Positions 17,106 through 40,082 of a DNA stretch of 64,000 nucleotides are shown in pieces. The stretch lies in the NCBI RefSeq assembly GCF_056746865.1, contig NZ_CM163382.1; one strand, given 5' to 3'. Under the pieces are notes generated by a model that saw only the letters and a list, made by a program, of their open reading frames with translations, did no database searches and was not told where the DNA came from. Both the position numbers and the translations under genes were made by a program. Position 1 is the first letter of the stretch, and the number at the start of each line of letters is the position of its first letter.

Positions 17106-17220
17106 TAATATGAATGTTTTTATGGCCGTACTGGGAATAATTTTATTTTCTGGTTTTCTGGCCGCGTATTTCAGCCACAAATGGGATGACTAATGAACGG
17201 AGATAATCCCTCACCTAACC

Positions 17221-17259
17221 GGCCCCTTGTTACAGTTGTGTACAAGGGGCCTGATTTTT
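17221..17259 (+). terminator. intrinsic terminator of mgtS
   Basis: Perfect 10-bp stem GGCCCCTTGT / ACAAGGGGCC with an 11-nt loop, followed by TGATTTTT. Confidence 0.75.
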
Positions 17260-17267
17260 ATGACGGC

Positions 17268-17365
17268 AAAAAAAAACCGCCAGTAAACCGGCGGTGAATG
17301 CTTGCATGGATAGATTTGTGTTTTGCTTTTACGCTAACAGGCATTTTCCTGCACTGATAACGGAT
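17268..17365 (-). ncRNA. mgrR: putative PhoP-regulated sRNA MgrR (about 98 nt)
   Basis: Minus-strand hairpin CCGCCGG-UUUA-CUGGCGG followed by U9 (3' end near 17268); candidate -10 TACTGT (plus 17373-17378) puts the 5' end near 17365, giving about 98 nt; PhoP box upstream; location between mgtS and dgcZ. Boundaries are approximate. Confidence 0.5.
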
Positions 17366-17400
17366 CGTTGACACAGTAGCATCAGTTTTCTCAATGAATG

Positions 17401-30969: not shown

Positions 30970-31076
30970 AACAGTCACCAGAGAGTAGAGATGATTCTCA
31001 ATCATAGTAGCAAATACAGTACTTTACACGTTAAATGCTATGCTTAAAGAAGTTATCTTCGCGTAAGGAGCTTATG

Positions 31077-31382
31077 ATGAAACTCTCAACCTGCTGTGCC
31101 GCGCTTCTGCTCGCCCTCGCCTCACCCGCGGTACTCGCCGCGCCGGGATCCTGTGAGCGCATACAGAGCGATATATCACAGCGCATTATCAATAATGGCG
31201 TACCCGAAAGCAGCTTCACGTTAAGTATTGTACCCAATGACCAGGTTGATCAGCCTGATTCCCAGGTCGTCGGGCATTGCGCTAATGATACGCATAAAAT
31301 TCTCTACACCCGCACCACCAGCGGTAACGTCTCTGCTCCCGCGCAGTCTACCCAGGATGGCGCGCCTGCCGAACCGCAGTAA
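31077..31382 (+). CDS. ynfD: DUF1161-family secreted protein
   Basis: Start at MKLSTCCAALLLALASPAVLA (signal peptide), preceded by SD AAGGAG; 101 aa. Confidence 0.85.
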   Translation: MKLSTCCAALLLALASPAVLAAPGSCERIQSDISQRIINNGVPESSFTLSIVPNDQVDQPDSQVVGHCANDTHKILYTRTTSGNVSAPAQSTQDGAPAEPQ

Positions 31383-31580
31383 CACATTATCGACTGAACG
31401 CCGGATACGACACATCCGGCGATTTGAACATACAACATAATCCCACCTTATTACTCATACCCTTCTATTGATATGGATTAATAATTCTTAACCCAAAATG
31501 GGTAGACTCCCTCTATTGTTAGCGCGCTAAATATTCAATATATAAACTTTTATATAACGATAAAGATCAGGGAGTGAGTT

Positions 31581-34007
31581 ATGTCCAAAAATGAACAAAT
31601 GGTGGGCATCAGCCGCAGAACACTCGTTAAATCTACCGCGATAGGTTCTCTGGCGCTGGCTGCAGGCGGTTTTTCTTTACCGTTCACCCTGCGCAGTGCA
31701 GCGGCAGCGGTACAGCAGGCCAGCGAGAAAGTGGTCTGGGGTGCCTGTTCCGTCAACTGTGGTAGCCGCTGTGCACTTCGTCTGCATGTTAAAGATAATG
31801 AAGTGACCTGGGTGGAAACTGACAACACCGGCAACGACGAGTATGGCAATCATCAAGTACGTGCCTGTTTGCGCGGTCGCTCCATCCGTCGGCGTATTAA
31901 TCATCCCGATCGCTTGAATTACCCAATGAAACGCGTGGGCAAACGCGGCGAAGGCAAATTCGAACGGATTAGCTGGGATGAAGCCCTGGATACTATCGCC
32001 AGTAGCCTGAAAAAAACCGTCGAACAATATGGCAATGAGGCTGTATATATTCAGTACTCTTCAGGGATCGTTGGCGGCAATATGACCCGCTCTTCGCCAT
32101 CCGCCTCGGCGGTCAAACGCCTGATGAACTGCTACGGCGGTTCACTCAACCAGTATGGCTCCTACAGCACCGCGCAAATTTCCTGTGCCATGCCCTACAC
32201 CTACGGCAGTAATGATGGCAACAGCACCACGGATATTGAAAACAGCAAGCTGGTCGTGATGTTTGGTAACAACCCGGCAGAAACCCGCATGAGCGGCGGT
32301 GGCATCACTTATCTTCTTGAAAAAGCGCGCGAGAAATCGAACGCAAAAATGATTGTTATCGATCCGCGATATACCGATACAGCTGCTGGTCGTGAAGACG
32401 AATGGCTACCTATTCGCCCGGGCACCGATGCCGCGCTGGTTGCGGGTATTGCCTGGGTATTGATTAACGAAAATCTCGTTGATCAACCTTTTCTCGATAA
32501 ATACTGCGTCGGCTATGACGAAAAAACCTTACCCGCAGATGCACCAAAAAATGGTCACTATAAAGCCTATATTCTTGGTGAAGGAGACGACAAAACAGCG
32601 AAAACGCCGCAGTGGGCTTCGCAAATTACCGGTATCCCGGTGGACCGTATCATCAAACTGGCGCGTGAAATTGGCACAGCAAAACCCGCTTATATCTGCC
32701 AGGGCTGGGGACCGCAACGCCAGGCAAACGGCGAGCTGACTGCACGCGCTATTGCGATGTTGCCTATTCTGACGGGCAATGTCGGCATCAGCGGCGGAAA
32801 TAGTGGCGCGCGTGAATCGACCTATACCATTACCATAGAACGCCTACCGGTGCTGGATAATCCGGTCAAAACGTCAATCTCCTGCTTCAGCTGGACAGAT
32901 GCTATCGATCATGGCCCGCAAATGACGGCAATCCGCGACGGTGTCCGGGGCAAAGATAAACTGGATGTGCCCATTAAGTTCATCTGGAACTACGCGGGAA
33001 ATACCCTCGTTAATCAGCATTCTGACATCAACAAAACGCATGAAATTCTGCAGGACGAATCGAAATGCGAAATGATTGTGGTCATCGAAAACTTTATGAC
33101 CTCATCGGCAAAATATGCCGACATTCTGCTGCCAGACCTGATGACCGTTGAGCAGGAAGATATTATTCCTAACGACTACGCCGGTAACATGGGATATCTC
33201 ATTTTCCTCCAGCCTGTCACCAGCGAAAAATTCGAACGCAAACCGATTTACTGGATCCTGAGTGAAGTCGCGAAACGTCTTGGACCTGAAGTCTATCAAA
33301 AGTTCACTGAAGGTCGCACTCAGGAACAATGGTTACAACATCTGTACGCCAAAATGCTTGCCAAAGATCCGGCGTTACCGTCTTACGACGAATTAAAAAA
33401 AATGGGTATCTATAAGCGTAAAGATCCCAATGGTCATTTTGTCGCCTACAAAGCATTTCGTGACGACCCCGAGGCAAATCCACTTAAAACGCCTTCCGGT
33501 AAGATTGAAATTTACTCCAGCAAGCTGGCGGAAATTGCCCGTACCTGGGAACTGGAAAAAGATGAAGTGATAAGCCCACTGCCGGTTTATGCCTCAACCT
33601 TTGAAGGCTGGGACTCCCCTGAACGTAGTACCTTTCCACTGCAACTGTTTGGTTTCCATTACAAATCCCGTACTCACTCGACCTACGGCAACATTGATGT
33701 CCTGAAGGCAGCCTGCCGTCAGGAAGTGTGGATCAACCCTATAGATGCACAGAAACGTGGGATTGCCAACGGCGATATGGTGCGGGTGTTTAACCATCGT
33801 GGCGAAGTTCGGCTACCAGCCAAAGTGACACCACGCATTCTCCCTGGGGTTAGCGCTATGGGCCAGGGAGCCTGGCACGAGGCCAATATGTCTGGCGATA
33901 AAATCGACCATGGCGGCTGTGTGAATACGCTAACCACTCTGCGCCCTTCACCACTGGCGAAGGGAAACCCGCAGCACACTAATCTGGTCGAGATCGAAAA
34001 AATATAA
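31581..34007 (+). CDS. ynfE: Tat-exported molybdopterin oxidoreductase catalytic subunit (DMSO-reductase family, DmsA paralog; selenate reductase)
   Basis: 808 aa; twin-arginine motif SRRTLVKS; N-terminal cysteine cluster CSVNCGSRC; molybdoenzyme domains. Confidence 0.93.
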   Translation: MSKNEQMVGISRRTLVKSTAIGSLALAAGGFSLPFTLRSAAAAVQQASEKVVWGACSVNCGSRCALRLHVKDNEVTWVETDNTGNDEYGNHQVRACLRGRSIRRRINHPDRLNYPMKRVGKRGEGKFERISWDEALDTIASSLKKTVEQYGNEAVYIQYSSGIVGGNMTRSSPSASAVKRLMNCYGGSLNQYGSYSTAQISCAMPYTYGSNDGNSTTDIENSKLVVMFGNNPAETRMSGGGITYLLEKAREKSNAKMIVIDPRYTDTAAGREDEWLPIRPGTDAALVAGIAWVLINENLVDQPFLDKYCVGYDEKTLPADAPKNGHYKAYILGEGDDKTAKTPQWASQITGIPVDRIIKLAREIGTAKPAYICQGWGPQRQANGELTARAIAMLPILTGNVGISGGNSGARESTYTITIERLPVLDNPVKTSISCFSWTDAIDHGPQMTAIRDGVRGKDKLDVPIKFIWNYAGNTLVNQHSDINKTHEILQDESKCEMIVVIENFMTSSAKYADILLPDLMTVEQEDIIPNDYAGNMGYLIFLQPVTSEKFERKPIYWILSEVAKRLGPEVYQKFTEGRTQEQWLQHLYAKMLAKDPALPSYDELKKMGIYKRKDPNGHFVAYKAFRDDPEANPLKTPSGKIEIYSSKLAEIARTWELEKDEVISPLPVYASTFEGWDSPERSTFPLQLFGFHYKSRTHSTYGNIDVLKAACRQEVWINPIDAQKRGIANGDMVRVFNHRGEVRLPAKVTPRILPGVSAMGQGAWHEANMSGDKIDHGGCVNTLTTLRPSPLAKGNPQHTNLVEIEKI

Positions 34008-34067
34008 CCCACTACAACCATAAATTCTGACATGACATTTTGTTTGAAAAGCAATAAGTGAGTAATG

Positions 34068-36491
34068 ATGAAAATCCATACCACAGAGGCGCTCATGAAG
34101 GCTGAAATCAGCCGTAGAAGTCTGATGAAAACCTCCGCACTTGGCAGTCTCGCGCTGGCAAGCAGTGCTTTCACTCTGCCATTTTCCCAAATGGTCCGAG
34201 CGGCAGAGGTACCGGTAGAAGAGAAAGCGGTCTGGAGTTCCTGCACCGTTAACTGCGGGAGCCGCTGTCTGTTACGTTTGCATGTGAAAGATGACACCGT
34301 GTACTGGGTGGAGTCTGATACGACAGGTGACGACGTCTACGGTAATCATCAGGTTCGGGCGTGTTTACGCGGACGCTCTATCCGTCGACGGATGAATCAT
34401 CCTGATAGGTTGAAATATCCCATGAAGCGTGTCGGCAAGCGCGGTGAAGGTAAATTTGAACGGATAAGTTGGGACGAAGCCCTGGATACCATCAGTGATA
34501 ATCTTCGGCGGATCCTAAAAGATTACGGCAATGAGGCTGTACATGTTCTCTATGGAACAGGCGTAGATGGCGGAAACATCACCAACTCAAACGTCCCGTA
34601 CCGTCTGATGAACTCTTGCGGTGGTTTTCTCAGTCGCTATGGCAGCTACAGTACCGCACAGATCAGTGCCGCAATGAGTTATATGTTCGGTGCCAATGAT
34701 GGCAACAGCCCGGATGATATCGCCAATACGAAACTGGTCGTTATGTTCGGAAATAACCCGGCAGAAACTCGGATGAGCGGCGGTGGTGTCACTTACTACG
34801 TCGAGCAAGCCCGAGAACGTTCAAATGCACGCATGATCGTCATCGATCCACGTTATAACGACACAGCTGCCGGACGTGAAGATGAATGGCTGCCCATTCG
34901 CCCTGGCACCGATGGAGCACTGGCCTGTGCGATTGCCTGGGTACTGATTACTGAAAACATGGTCGATCAGCCATTTCTCGACAAATATTGTGTTGGTTAC
35001 GATGAAAAAACGCTGCCCGCCAACGCACCACGTAACGCGCATTATAAAGCCTATATTCTGGGCGAAGGGCCTGACGGCATAGCTAAAACGCCGGAATGGG
35101 CAGCAAAAATCACCAGCATACCGGCAGAAAAAATTATCCATTTGGCACGAGAGATCGGTTCAGCAAAACCTGCTTATATTTGTCAGGGTTGGGGGCCACA
35201 ACGACACTCCAACGGCGAACAAACGTCCCGCGCTATTGCCATGCTTTCCGTTCTCACCGGTAACGTCGGCATAAACGGCGGCAACTCAGGTGTACGCGAA
35301 GGTAGCTGGGATCTGGGGGTAGAATGGTTCCCGATGCTTGAGAATCCTGTTAAAACGCAGATTTCCGTCTTTACATGGACAGATGCCATCGACCACGGTA
35401 CGGAAATGACCGCGACCCGTGATGGTGTTCGTGGAAAAGAAAAACTGGATGTCCCCATCAAGTTTTTATGGTGCTACGCCAGTAACACATTGATCAATCA
35501 ACATGGCGACATCAATCACACCCATGAGGTGCTTCAGGATGACAGCAAGTGCGAGATGATTGTTGGCATTGACCACTTCATGACTGCCTCGGCTAAGTAT
35601 TGCGATATCCTGTTGCCCGACCTGATGCCAACAGAGCAAGAAGACCTTATCTCTCACGAATCTGCCGGGAATATGGGCTATGTGATCCTCGCCCAACCCG
35701 CAACCTCAGCAAAATTTGAACGCAAACCCATCTACTGGATGCTGAGTGAAGTTGCCAAACGCTTAGGACCAGACGTTTATCAAACCTTTACTGAAGGTCG
35801 CAGTCAGCATGAATGGATCAAATATCTCCATGCGAAAACGAAGGAACGTAACCCTGAGATGCCCGACTACGAGGAGATGAAAACGACCGGGATCTTTAAG
35901 AAAAAATGCCCGGAAGAACACTACGTCGCTTTCCGCGCATTCCGTGAAGATCCACAGGCAAACCCGTTGAAAACACCTTCGGGGAAAATCGAAATTTATT
36001 CTGAACGACTGGCGACGATTGCGGATACCTGGGAATTGAAAAAAGATGAAATTATTCATCCCCTTCCTGCGTATACCCCAGGTTTTGATGGCTGGGACGA
36101 TCCCCTGCGGAAAACCTATCCACTGCAGTTAACGGGCTTCCACTACAAAGCGCGTACCCACTCCAGCTACGGCAATATTGATGTGTTACAGCAGGCCTGC
36201 CCACAAGAGGTGTGGATCAACCCTATTGATGCTCAGGCACGCGGTATCCGTCATGGCGATACCGTGCGGGTATTTAACAATAATGGAGAAATGCTGATTG
36301 CCGCAAAAGTGACTCCGCGTATTCTGCCTGGCGTTACCGCCATCGGGCAAGGTGCGTGGCTTAAAGCGGATATGTTTGGTGACCGGGTCGATCACGGCGG
36401 CAGTATCAATATTCTGACCTCTCACCGCCCTTCACCGCTGGCAAAGGGAAACCCGTCGCACAGCAATCTTGTCCAGATCGAAAAGGTTTAA
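34068..36491 (+). CDS. ynfF: Tat-exported molybdopterin oxidoreductase catalytic subunit (DmsA paralog)
   Basis: 807 aa from MKIHTTEAL; twin-arginine motif SRRSLMKT; close paralog of ynfE in tandem. Confidence 0.93.
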   Translation: MKIHTTEALMKAEISRRSLMKTSALGSLALASSAFTLPFSQMVRAAEVPVEEKAVWSSCTVNCGSRCLLRLHVKDDTVYWVESDTTGDDVYGNHQVRACLRGRSIRRRMNHPDRLKYPMKRVGKRGEGKFERISWDEALDTISDNLRRILKDYGNEAVHVLYGTGVDGGNITNSNVPYRLMNSCGGFLSRYGSYSTAQISAAMSYMFGANDGNSPDDIANTKLVVMFGNNPAETRMSGGGVTYYVEQARERSNARMIVIDPRYNDTAAGREDEWLPIRPGTDGALACAIAWVLITENMVDQPFLDKYCVGYDEKTLPANAPRNAHYKAYILGEGPDGIAKTPEWAAKITSIPAEKIIHLAREIGSAKPAYICQGWGPQRHSNGEQTSRAIAMLSVLTGNVGINGGNSGVREGSWDLGVEWFPMLENPVKTQISVFTWTDAIDHGTEMTATRDGVRGKEKLDVPIKFLWCYASNTLINQHGDINHTHEVLQDDSKCEMIVGIDHFMTASAKYCDILLPDLMPTEQEDLISHESAGNMGYVILAQPATSAKFERKPIYWMLSEVAKRLGPDVYQTFTEGRSQHEWIKYLHAKTKERNPEMPDYEEMKTTGIFKKKCPEEHYVAFRAFREDPQANPLKTPSGKIEIYSERLATIADTWELKKDEIIHPLPAYTPGFDGWDDPLRKTYPLQLTGFHYKARTHSSYGNIDVLQQACPQEVWINPIDAQARGIRHGDTVRVFNNNGEMLIAAKVTPRILPGVTAIGQGAWLKADMFGDRVDHGGSINILTSHRPSPLAKGNPSHSNLVQIEKV

Positions 36492-36501
36492 GGAGTAGCC
36501 C

Positions 36502-37119
36502 ATGACCACACAATATGGATTTTTTATCGATTCCAGCCGCTGTACTGGCTGTAAAACCTGCGAACTGGCGTGCAAAGATTTTAAAGATCTTGGCCCGGAA
36601 GTCAGTTTCCGCCGTATTTATGAATATGCTGGCGGCGACTGGCAGGAAGATAATGGCGTCTGGCACCAGAACGTGTTCGCTTATTATCTCTCCATCTCCT
36701 GTAACCATTGCGATGACCCCGCATGTACAAAAGTCTGCCCCAGCGGCGCAATGCATAAGCGTGAAGATGGCTTTGTGGTGGTTGATGAAGATGTTTGTAT
36801 CGGCTGCCGCTACTGCCACATGGCTTGTCCGTACGGCGCGCCACAGTACAATGCTGAAAAAGGACACATGACGAAGTGCGATGGTTGTTATTCGCGCGTC
36901 GCCGAGGGGAAACAACCCATATGTGTCGAATCCTGCCCGCTGCGTGCACTTGAGTTCGGTCCAATTGAAGAGCTGCGCCAGAAGCACGGCACTCTGGCTG
37001 CCGTCGCGCCACTACCGCGCGCGCATTTCACAAAACCCAATATCGTTATCAAACCTAACGCCAACAGCCGCCCGACCGGCGATACCACTGGTTATCTGGC
37101 TAATCCGGAGGAAGTGTAA
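36502..37119 (+). CDS. ynfG: 4Fe-4S ferredoxin-type electron-transfer subunit (DmsB paralog)
   Basis: 205 aa with four Cys clusters (CTGCKTCELAC, CNHCDDPAC, CIGCRYCHMAC, CDGC...C). Confidence 0.93.
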   Translation: MTTQYGFFIDSSRCTGCKTCELACKDFKDLGPEVSFRRIYEYAGGDWQEDNGVWHQNVFAYYLSISCNHCDDPACTKVCPSGAMHKREDGFVVVDEDVCIGCRYCHMACPYGAPQYNAEKGHMTKCDGCYSRVAEGKQPICVESCPLRALEFGPIEELRQKHGTLAAVAPLPRAHFTKPNIVIKPNANSRPTGDTTGYLANPEEV

Positions 37120-37120
37120 A

Positions 37121-37975
37121 ATGGGAAATGGATGGCATGAATGGCCACTGGTTATCTTTACCGTATTGGGTCAATGCGTAGTAGGCGCGCTGATTGTTAG
37201 CGGAATTGGCTGGTTCGCCGCCAATAATGACGCAGACCGTCAGCGTATTGTCCGTGGCATGTTTTTCCTCTGGCTGTTGATGGGCATCGGGTTTATTGCC
37301 TCTGTCATGCACCTGGGATCGCCACTGCGAGCGTTTAACTCGCTGAATCGAATCGGAGCTTCTGGTCTGAGTAACGAGATTGCTGCCGGTTCCATATTTT
37401 TTGCCGTTGGCGGATTATGGTGGCTGGTGGCAGTCATCGGTAAGATGCCGCAAGCGTTGGGGAAACTCTGGTTACTTGTCAGCATGGCGCTCGGCGTCAT
37501 TTTCGTCTGGATGATGACCTGCGTGTATCAAATCGACACAGTGCCAACCTGGCATAACGGTTACACTACGCTGGCTTTCTTCCTGACAGTATTGTTGAGC
37601 GGTCCAATACTTGCTGCCGCAATTCTGCGGGCAGCCCGCATTACATTTAATACCACACCCTTTGCCATCATTAGCGTTCTGGCGCTGATCGCTTGTGCCG
37701 GGGTGATTGTGCTGCAAGGTTTGTCTCTGGCGTCTATTCACTCATCCGTACAACAAGCCAGCGCACTGGTACCAGATTACGCCTCCTTACAGGTCTGGCG
37801 TGTGGTATTGTTATGCGCAGGTCTAGGATGCTGGCTTTGTCCGCTCATTCGTCGCCGTGAACCTCACGTTGCCGGACTTGTTCTGGGGCTAATCCTCATA
37901 CTTGGCGGTGAGATGATCGGGCGTGTGCTCTTTTATGGCCTGCACATGACGGTAGGAATGGCTATTGCAGGTTAA
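37121..37975 (+). CDS. ynfH: membrane anchor subunit (DmsC paralog)
   Basis: Start at MGNGWHEWPLVIF, 2 nt after the ynfG stop; 284 aa; polytopic. The ORF track entry 36881..37975 is over-extended. Confidence 0.9.
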   Translation: MGNGWHEWPLVIFTVLGQCVVGALIVSGIGWFAANNDADRQRIVRGMFFLWLLMGIGFIASVMHLGSPLRAFNSLNRIGASGLSNEIAAGSIFFAVGGLWWLVAVIGKMPQALGKLWLLVSMALGVIFVWMMTCVYQIDTVPTWHNGYTTLAFFLTVLLSGPILAAAILRAARITFNTTPFAIISVLALIACAGVIVLQGLSLASIHSSVQQASALVPDYASLQVWRVVLLCAGLGCWLCPLIRRREPHVAGLVLGLILILGGEMIGRVLFYGLHMTVGMAIAG

Positions 37976-38017
37976 CAAATTGGTGCGGGGCAACCCGCAC
38001 ATTTCAGGATGTTAGGA

Positions 38018-38632
38018 ATGACCCATTTTTCACAGCAAGATAATTTTTCTGTCGCGGCGCGCGTGTTGGGCGCGCTGTTTTATTACGCTCCAGAGAGTGC
38101 GGAAGCCGCACCTCTGGTTGCGGTACTCACCCGTGACGGCTGGGAAACTCAGTGGCCTCTACCAGAAGCGTCATTAGCGCCGCTGGTGACGGCTTTTCAG
38201 GCACAGAGTGAAGAGACTCGCGCCCAGGCCTGGCAGCGTTTGTTTGTCGGTCCGTGGGCTCTGCCATCACCGCCGTGGGGGGCGGTCTGGCTGGATCGCG
38301 AATCTGTGCTGTTTGGCGATTCAACATTGGCACTTCGTCAGTGGATGCGCGAGAAAGGCATTCAGTTTGAAATGAAGCAAAACGAACCGGAAGATCATTT
38401 TGGTTCACTGCTGTTGATGGCTGCGTGGTTGGCGGAGAATGGTCGCCAGACAGAATGCGAAGAATTGCTGGCATGGCACCTTTTTCCGTGGTCAACACGT
38501 TTTCTTGACGTTTTTATCGAAAAAGCAGAACACCCTTTCTACCGTGCACTGGGTGAACTGGCTCGCTTAACGCTGGCGCAATGGCAATCACAACTGTTAA
38601 TTCCTGTCGCGGTTAAACCACTCTTTCGATAG
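38018..38632 (+). CDS. dmsD: Tat proofreading chaperone DmsD
   Basis: Start at MTHFSQQDNFS (204 aa); TorD-family; operon context. Confidence 0.92.
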   Translation: MTHFSQQDNFSVAARVLGALFYYAPESAEAAPLVAVLTRDGWETQWPLPEASLAPLVTAFQAQSEETRAQAWQRLFVGPWALPSPPWGAVWLDRESVLFGDSTLALRQWMREKGIQFEMKQNEPEDHFGSLLLMAAWLAENGRQTECEELLAWHLFPWSTRFLDVFIEKAEHPFYRALGELARLTLAQWQSQLLIPVAVKPLFR

Positions 38633-38825
38633 GATCACCGTAATATTGCCGGATGGTGTCGATTAGGCGCAATTCGGCAATAATAGGTTACAGTGTCACG
38701 TTTTTTATCTCTTAAAGCACGCACTGCTTTTGCGTCTGGCTTCTTTTGCCGCAAAATAGTCGCCCGTATTTCATTGCCCATTTCTGCTCATGCATCATCT
38801 ACACATCTATCCGGATCTGCGCACT

Positions 38826-40082
38826 ATGTTCCGCCGTCTGCTTATCGCAACAGTCGTCGGTATTCTTGCGGCCTTTGCCGTTGCCGGGTTTCGTCATGCA
38901 ATGCTGCTACTGGAGTGGTTGTTCCTCAATAATGACTCGGGCAGTCTGGTCAATGCAGCGACAAATCTTTCCCCCTGGCGACGGCTGCTAACTCCGGCGC
39001 TCGGCGGACTGGCGGCGGGTTTGTTGCTGATGGGCTGGCAGAAATTTACCCAGCAACGCCCTCATGCGCCGACCGATTACATGGAAGCGTTGCAAACCGA
39101 TGGGCAGTTTGATTACGCAGCAAGCCTGGTTAAATCCCTTGCCTCTCTGCTGGTAGTAACCAGCGGCAGTGCAATTGGTCGCGAAGGTGCGATGATTCTT
39201 TTAGCTGCCCTTGCCGCCTCCTGTTTTGCCCAACGTTTTACGCCACGCCAGGAGTGGAAATTATGGATCGCCTGTGGAGCTGCGGCGGGAATGGCTGCGG
39301 CCTATCGCGCCCCGCTTGCTGGCAGTTTATTTATAGCCGAAGTGCTGTTTGGCACTATGATGTTGGCCTCTCTCGGCCCGGTGATTATTTCCGCCGTCGT
39401 GGCATTGCTGGTTAGCAATCTGATTAATCATAGCGACGCGTTACTCTACAGTGTACAACTCTCAGTGACGGTTCAGGCTCGTGACTATGCGCTGATTATC
39501 AGTACAGGTGTGCTGGCAGGTCTGTGCGGACCACTGTTGTTAACGTTGATGAACGCCTGTCATCGTGAATTTGTAAGTCTCAAGCTTGCGCCGCCCTGGC
39601 AACTGGCACTGGGCGGGTTGATCGTGGGTCTGCTTTCCCTGTTCACACCTGCAGTGTGGGGCAACGGCTATAGCACCGTACAATCCTTTTTAACCGCTCC
39701 GCCACTGTTAATGATCATTGCCGGGATCTTCCTCTGTAAACTGTTTGCCGTGCTGGCGAGTAGTGGTTCTGGCGCGCCCGGTGGTGTCTTTACACCGACG
39801 CTATTTATCGGTCTTGCCATTGGCATGTTGTATGGTCGTAGCCTGGGATTATGGTTCCCTGATGGCGAAGAAATTACGCTTTTACTCGGATTGACCGGGA
39901 TGGCGACACTGTTGGCGGCAACCACGCACGCGCCGATTATGTCGACGTTGATGATATGTGAAATGACCGGGGAGTATCAGCTACTCCCCGGTTTATTGAT
40001 TGCCTGCGTAATTGCGTCGGTAATTTCGCGGACGTTACACCGTGACTCTATCTACCGCCAGCACACTGCGAAGCATAGCTAA
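38826..40082 (+). CDS. clcB: ClC-family voltage-gated chloride channel / H+-Cl- antiporter
   Basis: Start at [11 protein letters not shown] (418 aa); ClC selectivity-type motifs GSAIGREGA and [10 protein letters not shown]. Confidence 0.9.

Follow-up and report, generated by a model that had tools for sequence, protein, structure and literature searches.

Ancient paralogous catalytic genes ahead of a single electron-transfer module in the ynfEFGH-dmsD operon of Escherichia coli

Membrane-bound molybdoenzymes of the DmsABC type follow a paradigm in which each of the A, B, and C subunits is present once. The layout of the ynf operon with two catalytic subunits has been under discussion since 2003. 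To judge by their titles, a study by Fujita et al. from 2021 (cited in PMC12096835) reportedly deals with the selenate/tellurate reductase, and one by Xu et al. from 2009 (cited in PMC3547828) is said to describe the anaerobic, FNR-dependent control of the ynf operon. YnfE and YnfF have been characterized as paralogous selenate/tellurate reductase isoenzymes that are served by YnfG, YnfH, and DmsD (PMC5203670, PMC12724226). The operon is controlled anaerobically in an FNR-dependent manner, and DmsD of Salmonella binds the signal peptides of DmsA, YnfE, and YnfF (PMC5203670). A Salmonella strain with a deletion of ynfF, in which YnfE is the sole catalytic subunit, still reduces selenate, and YnfF adds little to this activity (PMC5203670). 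Both DmsABC and the Ynf enzyme depend on DmsD (PMC10609526). The SrnA subunit from Enterobacter cloacae is reported to be 86% identical to E. coli YnfE, and its operon shares the B, C, and D genes (PMC12724226).

Positions 31581–38632 of the window, which is the whole 64,000-nucleotide stretch of DNA that was analyzed, contain five co-directional genes on the plus strand, all of which are intact and without internal stops upon re-translation. The locus is very probably the ynfEFGH-dmsD operon of E. coli, encoding a DmsABC-type, membrane-bound, periplasm-facing selenate/tellurate-reducing molybdoenzyme, in which ancient paralogous catalytic subunits would form alternative heterotrimers sharing one module. 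The gene names, coordinates, and features listed in the initial annotation are correct: this part of the window is 100% identical over 8,501 bp to the genomes of E. coli strain 118UI and others, in which RefSeq labels the genes ynfE, ynfF, ynfG, ynfH, and dmsD, and the proteins pass the expected Pfam and NCBIfam models. The locus agrees with the ynfEFGH-dmsD (ynfEFGHI) operons of E. coli K-12 and Salmonella in the order, size, and spacing of its genes, in its motifs, and in its neighbors, ynfD upstream and clcB downstream. The allele in the window has ~98% DNA identity to that of K-12 MG1655 (~2% nucleotide difference) and otherwise shows no difference of substance. The locus was matched in 5,424 of the 5,426 complete E. 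coli genomes that formed the survey set. The arrangement with two catalytic genes has already been described, and its detection in this window contains nothing novel; the operon is annotated in nearly all E. coli genomes, and the comparative patterns presented below do not make it a new kind of system. The annotation of an internal stop in the neighboring clcB is due to a TGG-to-TGA change in strain 118UI only, and clcB is intact in the window.

The first gene, ynfE (31581–34007), is an uninterrupted 808-codon open reading frame for an 808-residue Tat-exported Mo-bisPGD catalytic subunit. The second, ynfF (34068–36491), encodes another Tat-exported Mo-bisPGD catalytic subunit of 807 residues, or 808 if translated from the ATG at 34065. 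Adjacent ATG codons at 34065 (808 codons) and 34068 (807 codons, the choice of RefSeq) precede the gene. The reported lengths of 807 and 808 residues are right in that the two frames are near-equal; however, each spans 808 codons from its first ATG, and therefore the value of 807 for YnfF is a matter of start codon. The catalytic pair is followed, as previously noted, by a single ynfG, a single ynfH, and dmsD. The product of ynfG (36502–37119) is a 205-residue DmsB-type ferredoxin with 16 cysteines and without a signal peptide. Its TAA codon ends at 37119, and a single A at 37120 separates it from the ATG of ynfH at 37121, which is the 1-nt gap that had been claimed. The 284-residue product of ynfH (37121–37975) is a DmsC-type membrane anchor, and dmsD (38018–38632) encodes a 204-residue Tat proofreading chaperone of the NarJ/TorD family for YnfE, YnfF, and DmsA. 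The call of dmsD was correct, but its annotated start at ATG 38018 is not the first in-frame ATG, which is at 38009 and would give a protein of 207 residues.

Pfam domains match expectation in all five proteins. PF04879, PF00384, and PF01568 score above the gathering threshold in both YnfE and YnfF, and the NCBIfam models tell the two proteins apart. YnfE passes the YnfE model NF041885 with 1798 bits (cutoff 1675); its 1479 bits on the YnfF model and 1347 bits on the DmsA model are below the respective cutoffs of 1650 and 1600. YnfF passes its own model NF041884 with 1773 bits (cutoff 1650) and stays below those of YnfE (1481 bits, cutoff 1675) and DmsA (1318 bits, cutoff 1600). YnfG passes TIGR02951 (264.8 bits, cutoff 214.1), and its 16 cysteines are expected to bind four [4Fe-4S] clusters. 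YnfH matches the DmsC domain PF04976 with E = 7e-128. DmsD scores 342 bits on NF008632 (cutoff 162) with residues 1–204 covered and also matches PF02613.

The Ynf enzyme resembles E. coli DmsABC in its three-subunit design, in which a ferredoxin with four clusters and an anchor of the DmsC type accompany a Tat-exported Mo-bisPGD subunit that contains an FS0 cluster. The spacings of 10 nt between the A and B genes and of 1 nt between the B and C genes (dmsB/dmsC in K-12) are identical in the two operons. By contrast, the dmsABC operon includes only a single catalytic gene and lacks a gene for a chaperone, and DmsA differs from YnfE and YnfF in the length and sequence of the active-site loop. 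The E. cloacae srnABCD selenate reductase, compared here from its published description, differs in having a single catalytic gene and lacking ynfF; other Enterobacter species in the sample likewise have an operon with one catalytic gene in the same ynfD-to-dmsD neighborhood. The dms/ynf operons of Rahnella and Mesocricetibacter are similar in that two tandem genes of the DmsA family precede one gene each for the B and C subunits and dmsD, and their first catalytic gene belongs to the YnfE clade, as does ynfE; however, the second clusters with DmsA and not with YnfF in a neighbor-joining tree. The description of the layout as unusual thus holds relative to the standard dmsABC operon, but the layout is not unique, since, in the biased sample of relatives, both catalytic genes also lie between ynfD and ynfG in Salmonella, Citrobacter amalonaticus S646, and Pseudocitrobacter.

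Both catalytic subunits begin with the twin-arginine signals that had been reported, SRRTLVKS in YnfE (residues 11–18; 31611–31634) and SRRSLMKT in YnfF (34110–34133), both of which lead into a hydrophobic segment and an alanine-rich end. The N-terminal cysteine clusters are also present in both proteins in the form C-X3-C-X3-C-X31-C. In YnfE, the FS0 [4Fe-4S] cluster motif comprises C56-X3-C60-X3-C64-X31-C96 (31746–31868) within the Pfam Molybdop_Fe4S4 domain (residues 49–108), and the motif scan and Pfam place that of YnfF at 34242–34364. The predicted molybdenum ligand is a serine conserved in both proteins, Ser196 of YnfE (32166–32168) and S195 of YnfF in the 807-residue numbering (34650–34652), which aligns with Ser147 of Rhodobacter DorA and the first serine of the DYSSAQI motif of DmsA.

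The alignment of YnfE with YnfF that had been suggested as a way to locate divergent active-site residues identified the loop of the active-site funnel, which is the most indel-rich region across YnfE, YnfF, and DmsA. The YnfE loop, residues 159–180, YSSGIVGGNMTRSSPSASAVKR (32055–32120), aligns with the DorA segment from Rhodobacter that includes Y114 and W116. The corresponding loop of YnfF, YGTGVDGGNITNSNVPY (34551–34601), is four residues shorter than that of YnfE and six residues shorter than that of DmsA, and has an asparagine at the position where YnfE (R170) and DmsA carry an arginine. The difference is fixed in the 13-member YnfF clade, and 61 positions discriminate between the clades. 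Mutagenesis of DmsA at T148, R149, A178, Q179, and R217 (old numbering) reportedly affects substrate specificity. A search of a copy of the PDB for structures of DmsA, YnfE, and YnfF yielded none, and the nearest structures were those of Rhodobacter DorA and TorA.

The mechanism proposed here takes the selenate/tellurate activity, the dependence on DmsD, the menaquinol donor, and the anaerobic control from the literature. YnfE and YnfF would each contain Mo-bisPGD with a serine metal ligand and one N-terminal [4Fe-4S] cluster. DmsD would hold the twin-arginine signal peptide of either subunit during cofactor insertion, after which the folded catalytic subunit would most likely be exported by the Tat system along with YnfG, a ferredoxin without a signal peptide, and would then dock on the quinol-oxidizing anchor YnfH. 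Electrons would then pass from menaquinol through YnfH, YnfG, and the FS0 cluster to molybdenum and the substrate. In this scheme, YnfE is the chief selenate reductase, and the distinct active-site loop of YnfF probably gives it a different range of substrates.

Because there are two catalytic genes but only one ynfG and one ynfH, we infer that YnfE-YnfG-YnfH and YnfF-YnfG-YnfH are most likely alternative heterotrimers that compete for one shared module. The subunit exchange or condition-specific use suggested in the initial annotation agrees with the published view of paralogous isoenzymes and with the reduction of selenate by YnfE alone in the Salmonella deletion strain. A single YnfEFGH complex in which both catalytic subunits are obligate, for example as a heterodimeric pair on one YnfG-YnfH module, would be in keeping with the adjacency and co-transcription of the genes and with the frequent use in papers of the name "YnfEFGH selenate reductase", which suggests a single complex. 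However, versions with a single catalytic subunit function in E. cloacae SrnABC and in the Salmonella strain without ynfF, natural operons at the same locus encode only YnfE, only YnfF, or a chimera, and ynfF is dead while ynfE, ynfG, ynfH, and dmsD are intact in 546 of the 5,426 complete E. coli genomes. Together with the DmsABC stoichiometry, these observations make an obligate complex very improbable.

The duplication that gave rise to ynfE and ynfF is ancient. The proteins are highly similar, as had been stated, with 566 of 799 residues identical (71%, E = 0, BLASTP), which is well past chance. YnfE, YnfF, and DmsA are nearly equidistant, with identities of 71% for YnfE-YnfF, 68% for YnfE-DmsA, and 67% for YnfF-DmsA. 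The two genes have a DNA identity of 69.5%, a saturated pS of 0.71, and a dN of 0.215. Their tandem arrangement and equal frame lengths are all that would speak for a recent duplication, an assembly artifact, or homogenization by gene conversion. The longest in-register exact match between the genes is only 17 nt, which together with the pS value rules out recent duplication and recent gene conversion, and no conversion tracts are present. Furthermore, other genera share the arrangement, as do thousands of complete genomes that are independent of each other, so that a recent or artifactual origin of the pair is extremely improbable. The YnfE and YnfF clades are separate in the neighbor-joining tree, each with a bootstrap value of 100, in a sample of relatives that is biased since its loci were chosen with peptide patterns derived from YnfF.

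Both ynfE and ynfF are under purifying selection. Comparison of E. coli with Salmonella enterica arizonae gives dN values of 0.080 (ynfE) and 0.052 (ynfF) at saturated dS, and the protein identity between E. coli and Salmonella is 87.7% for YnfE and 91.9% for YnfF. YnfF is therefore conserved at least as well as YnfE between Escherichia and Salmonella. At the same time, the pair is evolutionarily unstable. Within the biased sample, operons at the same locus encode only YnfE in Enterobacter, Phytobacter, and Kosakonia, and some Citrobacter have only YnfF; other Citrobacter encode a chimera with the ynfE signal peptide on the body of YnfF. Of the 5,426 complete E. coli genomes, 665 lack the inner part of ynfF and 115 lack the 5' part of ynfE. 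The 546 genomes with dead ynfF share one clonal double deletion within the gene and include the ST131 strain EC958; unlike in the ST131 lineage, ynfF is intact in the window, where a frameshift or premature stop was looked for in both paralogs on re-translation and none was found.

The strong purifying selection on YnfF despite its small part in selenate reduction is a recognized question. The losses within ynfF in E. coli, the absence of the gene from the three genera with YnfE-only operons, and the listing of ynfE and ynfF among the metabolic genes that most often become pseudogenes across the E. coli pangenome (PMC13322260) would fit a reading in which YnfF is a functionally redundant spare copy drifting to loss and YnfE alone matters. 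We consider this unlikely, given the lower dN and higher identity of YnfF, the coherence of its clade across genera with a fixed distinctive loop, the intact copy in the window, and the Citrobacter that retain YnfF without YnfE or keep its body under the ynfE signal peptide. It is possible, with a chance that we put somewhat below even, that selection acts on YnfF separately, as an enzyme that has a physiological substrate of its own and a specificity set by the loop, and that competes with YnfE for YnfG-YnfH. If YnfF is such an enzyme, the repeated collapse to YnfE-only, YnfF-only, or chimeric operons would represent a niche-specific choice of one activity. Handles on substrate specialization are provided by the fixed difference in the loop, by the operons that naturally have one catalytic gene or a chimera, and by the ynfF pseudogene of ST131.

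The region upstream of ynfE contains an FNR-like box, TTGATATGGATTAA (31468–31481), with one mismatch to TTGAT-N4-ATCAA, ~106 nt ahead of the ATG. A -10-like hexamer TAGACT on the plus strand (31503–31508), assigned to the presumed ynfE promoter from its spacing to the box, places the latter near -41.5, as in FNR-activated promoters of class II; the box is a candidate by its match to the consensus, and the whole 64-kb window gives 12 hits with at most one mismatch, with both strands counted and palindromes perhaps counted twice. The spacer between ynfE and ynfF with its ribosome-binding region, AGTGAGTAATG, extends over 34008–34067. The string AGTGAGT[T/A]ATG occurs ahead of ynfE and ynfF alike, and therefore the translation start region was part of the duplicated unit. 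A consensus scan of the 57-nt ynfE-ynfF spacer detected no internal promoter or terminator. The ynfH-dmsD spacer contains a 7-bp G+C-rich hairpin, GTGCGGGGCAACCCGCAC (37983–38000, plus strand), which was rejected as a structured element because the folding energy of its 61-nt context, -18.7 kcal/mol, is not significant relative to shuffled sequences (z = -1.7). Rfam identified no structured RNA at the gathering threshold in positions 31000–39000, and its sole match in the window is STnc560 at 17187–17400.

The segment 31581–38632 contains five ORFs in the same direction, none of which has an internal stop: ynfE (31581–34007, 808 aa), ynfF (34065 or 34068 to 36491, 808 or 807 aa), ynfG (36502–37119, 205 aa), ynfH (37121–37975, 284 aa), and dmsD (38018–38632, 204 aa, or 207 aa if an in-frame ATG at 38009 is used). 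RefSeq gives the genes these names and the flanking genes as ynfD and clcB. Several E. coli chromosomes match the 8.5-kb stretch at 100% identity, and 5,424 of the 5,426 complete E. coli genomes contain a match. YnfE and YnfF both have Fe4S4, molybdopterin, and dinucleotide-binding Pfam domains, YnfG has a four-cluster ferredoxin domain, YnfH belongs to DmsC, and DmsD to the NarJ/TorD family. The NCBIfam models split the two catalytic subunits cleanly: YnfE scores 1798 against the YnfE model (cutoff 1675), and fails the YnfF (1479, cutoff 1650) and DmsA (1347, cutoff 1600) models, while YnfF passes its own model with 1773 and fails those of YnfE (1481) and DmsA (1318).

The initial annotation described two highly similar, intact catalytic genes with twin-arginine signals and N-terminal cysteine clusters, and its account of the operon is accurate. 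YnfE and YnfF are 71% identical over 799 aligned residues (E = 0), the motifs SRRTLVKS and SRRSLMKT are present, and both proteins have a C-X3-C-X3-C-X31-C cluster. Re-translation of ynfE and ynfF from the window strain reveals no frameshift or premature stop. The stop codon of ynfG and the ATG of ynfH are separated by one base, as had been noted, and the spacing of dmsB and dmsC in K-12 is identical. The locus is an annotated operon that has already been studied, and the interpretation of the initial annotation, subunit exchange or condition-specific use, agrees with published work. The ynfEFGH-dmsD finding is already known, and the side observations, which lie outside the window, are modest additions.

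The duplication that gave rise to ynfE and ynfF is old. The genes share 69.5% of nucleotides, with saturated synonymous differences (pS 0.71) and a dN of 0.215, and YnfE, YnfF, and DmsA are nearly equidistant (71, 68, and 67%). Because the longest identical in-register run is 17 nt, neither recent duplication nor gene conversion is suggested. Purifying selection on both genes is strong. When E. coli is compared with Salmonella enterica arizonae, dS is saturated, whereas dN is 0.080 for ynfE and 0.052 for ynfF; at the protein level, YnfE is 87.7% and YnfF 91.9% identical. The possibility that YnfF is a decaying spare copy is weakened by this strong conservation, but such decay is possible in particular lineages such as ST131.

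A search for divergent residues, as proposed in the initial annotation for the active site, yields 61 positions that discriminate the YnfE and YnfF clades, defined as at least 90% conserved inside each clade and differing between the clades. The clearest cluster is the loop formed by YnfE residues 159–180 (YSSGIVGGNMTRSSPSASAVKR), which is aligned with the segment of DorA, the Rhodobacter DMSO reductase, that holds Y114 and W116. The loop of YnfF (YGTGVDGGNITNSNVPYR) is four residues shorter, and that of DmsA is YGTGTLGGTMTRSWPPGNTLVAR. The residue at the position of YnfE R170 is arginine in YnfE and DmsA and asparagine across the whole YnfF clade. We infer that this loop sets the substrate range. 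Residue S196 of YnfE and its YnfF equivalent are aligned with Ser147 of DorA and are predicted to be molybdenum-ligand serines. The PDB entries searched contain no structures of DmsA, YnfE, or YnfF.

YnfF was used to scan species-representative genomes, which gave 56 loci, the genes of which were mapped; selection of the loci by YnfF-derived peptide patterns makes this sample biased. Seventy catalytic subunits were placed in an NJ tree (100 bootstraps), in which YnfF and, within Enterobacterales, YnfE form clades with a bootstrap value of 100 each; the two clades are sisters with a value of 87. The conserved gene order is ynfA-ynfB-speG-ynfC-ynfD, one or more catalytic genes, and ynfG-ynfH-dmsD. 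At this locus, Escherichia, Salmonella, C. amalonaticus S646, and Pseudocitrobacter have both ynfE and ynfF; Enterobacter, Phytobacter, and Kosakonia have only ynfE, in agreement with the published srnABCD of E. cloacae; and other C. amalonaticus genomes and one Citrobacter MAG have only ynfF. The sole catalytic gene of C. youngae CCUG 30791 (L012:3739-6213), Citrobacter sp. Cu233 (L013:6923-9397), and wls619 (L011:6923-9397) is a chimera, in which the N-terminus and Tat signal peptide are of the YnfE type and the body from about AVWSSCTVNCGSRCLL on is of the YnfF type; this looks like a collapse of the tandem pair by deletion between the two paralogues. In five Rahnella species (L018, L019, L038, L041, L054) and in Mesocricetibacter (L044), the first catalytic gene is from the YnfE clade and the second is from the DmsA clade, not YnfF, and the pair lies ahead of one B gene, one C gene, and dmsD. 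Therefore, the two-catalytic-gene layout exists outside Enterobacteriaceae with a different second partner. In Kluyvera cryocrescens and an Enterobacteriaceae isolate (L034:787-8718, L037:2970-10899), dmsABC is directly followed by a full A-B-C set with an A gene from the YnfF clade, and no dmsD was detected after this second set within the locus. The single-copy, chimeric, and other layouts show that, in this biased sample, two catalytic genes with one ferredoxin and anchor module are a minority form, which is recurrent and collapses easily. A 350-bp contig of Alkalicoccobacillus porphyridii P16 (L060, coverage about 1) codes for 116 residues that match E. coli YnfF at 100% identity, and is very likely E. 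coli contamination of the Bacillales assembly.

The operon product is a membrane-bound selenate reductase, in which catalysis is mainly by YnfE; YnfF shares 71% identity with YnfE and contributes little to selenate reduction, and DmsD binds the signal peptides of DmsA, YnfE, and YnfF (PMC5203670). YnfE and YnfF are regarded as paralogous isoenzymes in the literature. SrnA of E. cloacae restores activity, which the authors attributed to a posited complex of SrnA with YnfG and YnfH of E. coli, and menaquinone is the stated electron donor (PMC12724226). The literature and the natural single-copy operons agree in favouring a pair of alternative heterotrimers (YnfE-G-H and YnfF-G-H), which would use one shared module, over an obligate complex containing both YnfE and YnfF.

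Among the 5,426 complete genomes of E. coli, 665 lack the internal part of ynfF at 34800–35350, 115 lack the 5′ 1.4 kb of ynfE, and 104 have no match to either gene. Most of the ynfF losses are explained by one event, a clonal double deletion equivalent to 34782–35361 (580 bp) and 36136–36409 (274 bp) of the window (L003:5488-7057, L062:27264-28833), the exact junction of which is found in 546 of these genomes. ynfE, ynfG, ynfH, and dmsD are intact beside it. Its carriers include MNCRE44 and EC958 (O25b:H4-ST131), in which RefSeq annotates ynfF as a frameshifted pseudogene. Expression of 'ynfF' in EC958 was reported in 2025 in a paper from which the words pseudogene, truncated, and frameshift are absent (PMC12096835). 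In other strains, integrase and IS100 genes lie beside a ynfE that lacks its 5′ part, and a further strain has IS1 at the site from which ynfE and most of ynfF have been lost. In every loss of ynfE or ynfF examined, ynfG, ynfH, and dmsD are retained. According to a 2026 pangenome paper, ynfE and ynfF belong to the metabolic genes that most frequently become pseudogenes (PMC13322260). In addition, ynfE of Escherichia sp. MOD1-EC7003 is split over two reading frames (L006:4522-6937), and ynfF of E. albertii NBRC 107761 has an in-frame stop near codon 290 (L007:629-3055); both could be additional pseudogenes of independent origin or errors in the draft assemblies.

A candidate FNR box with one mismatch to the consensus (31468–31481), accompanied by a suitably spaced −10-like hexamer, fits the published anaerobic control. 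The string AGTGAGT[T/A]ATG is common to the starts of ynfE (31570–31583) and ynfF (34054–34067); therefore, the translation start region was part of the ancestral duplicated unit. In this register, the start of ynfE matches the first ATG of ynfF (34065), and the RefSeq start is 34068. The 42-nt ynfH-dmsD spacer contains a perfect 7-bp G+C-rich hairpin (GTGCGGGGCAACCCGCAC, 37983–38000) that is not followed by a T-run and has a folding z-score of only −1.7; it might modulate the expression of dmsD relative to ynfEFGH. Downstream, clcB (38790–40082) is intact; in strain 118UI, which is identical over 31000–39500, TGA replaces TGG at codon 270 of clcB, and RefSeq annotates a pseudogene. Of the Rfam families, the window has a match only to the Hfq-binding sRNA STnc560, which is full-length with 281 bits at 17187–17400 on the minus strand.
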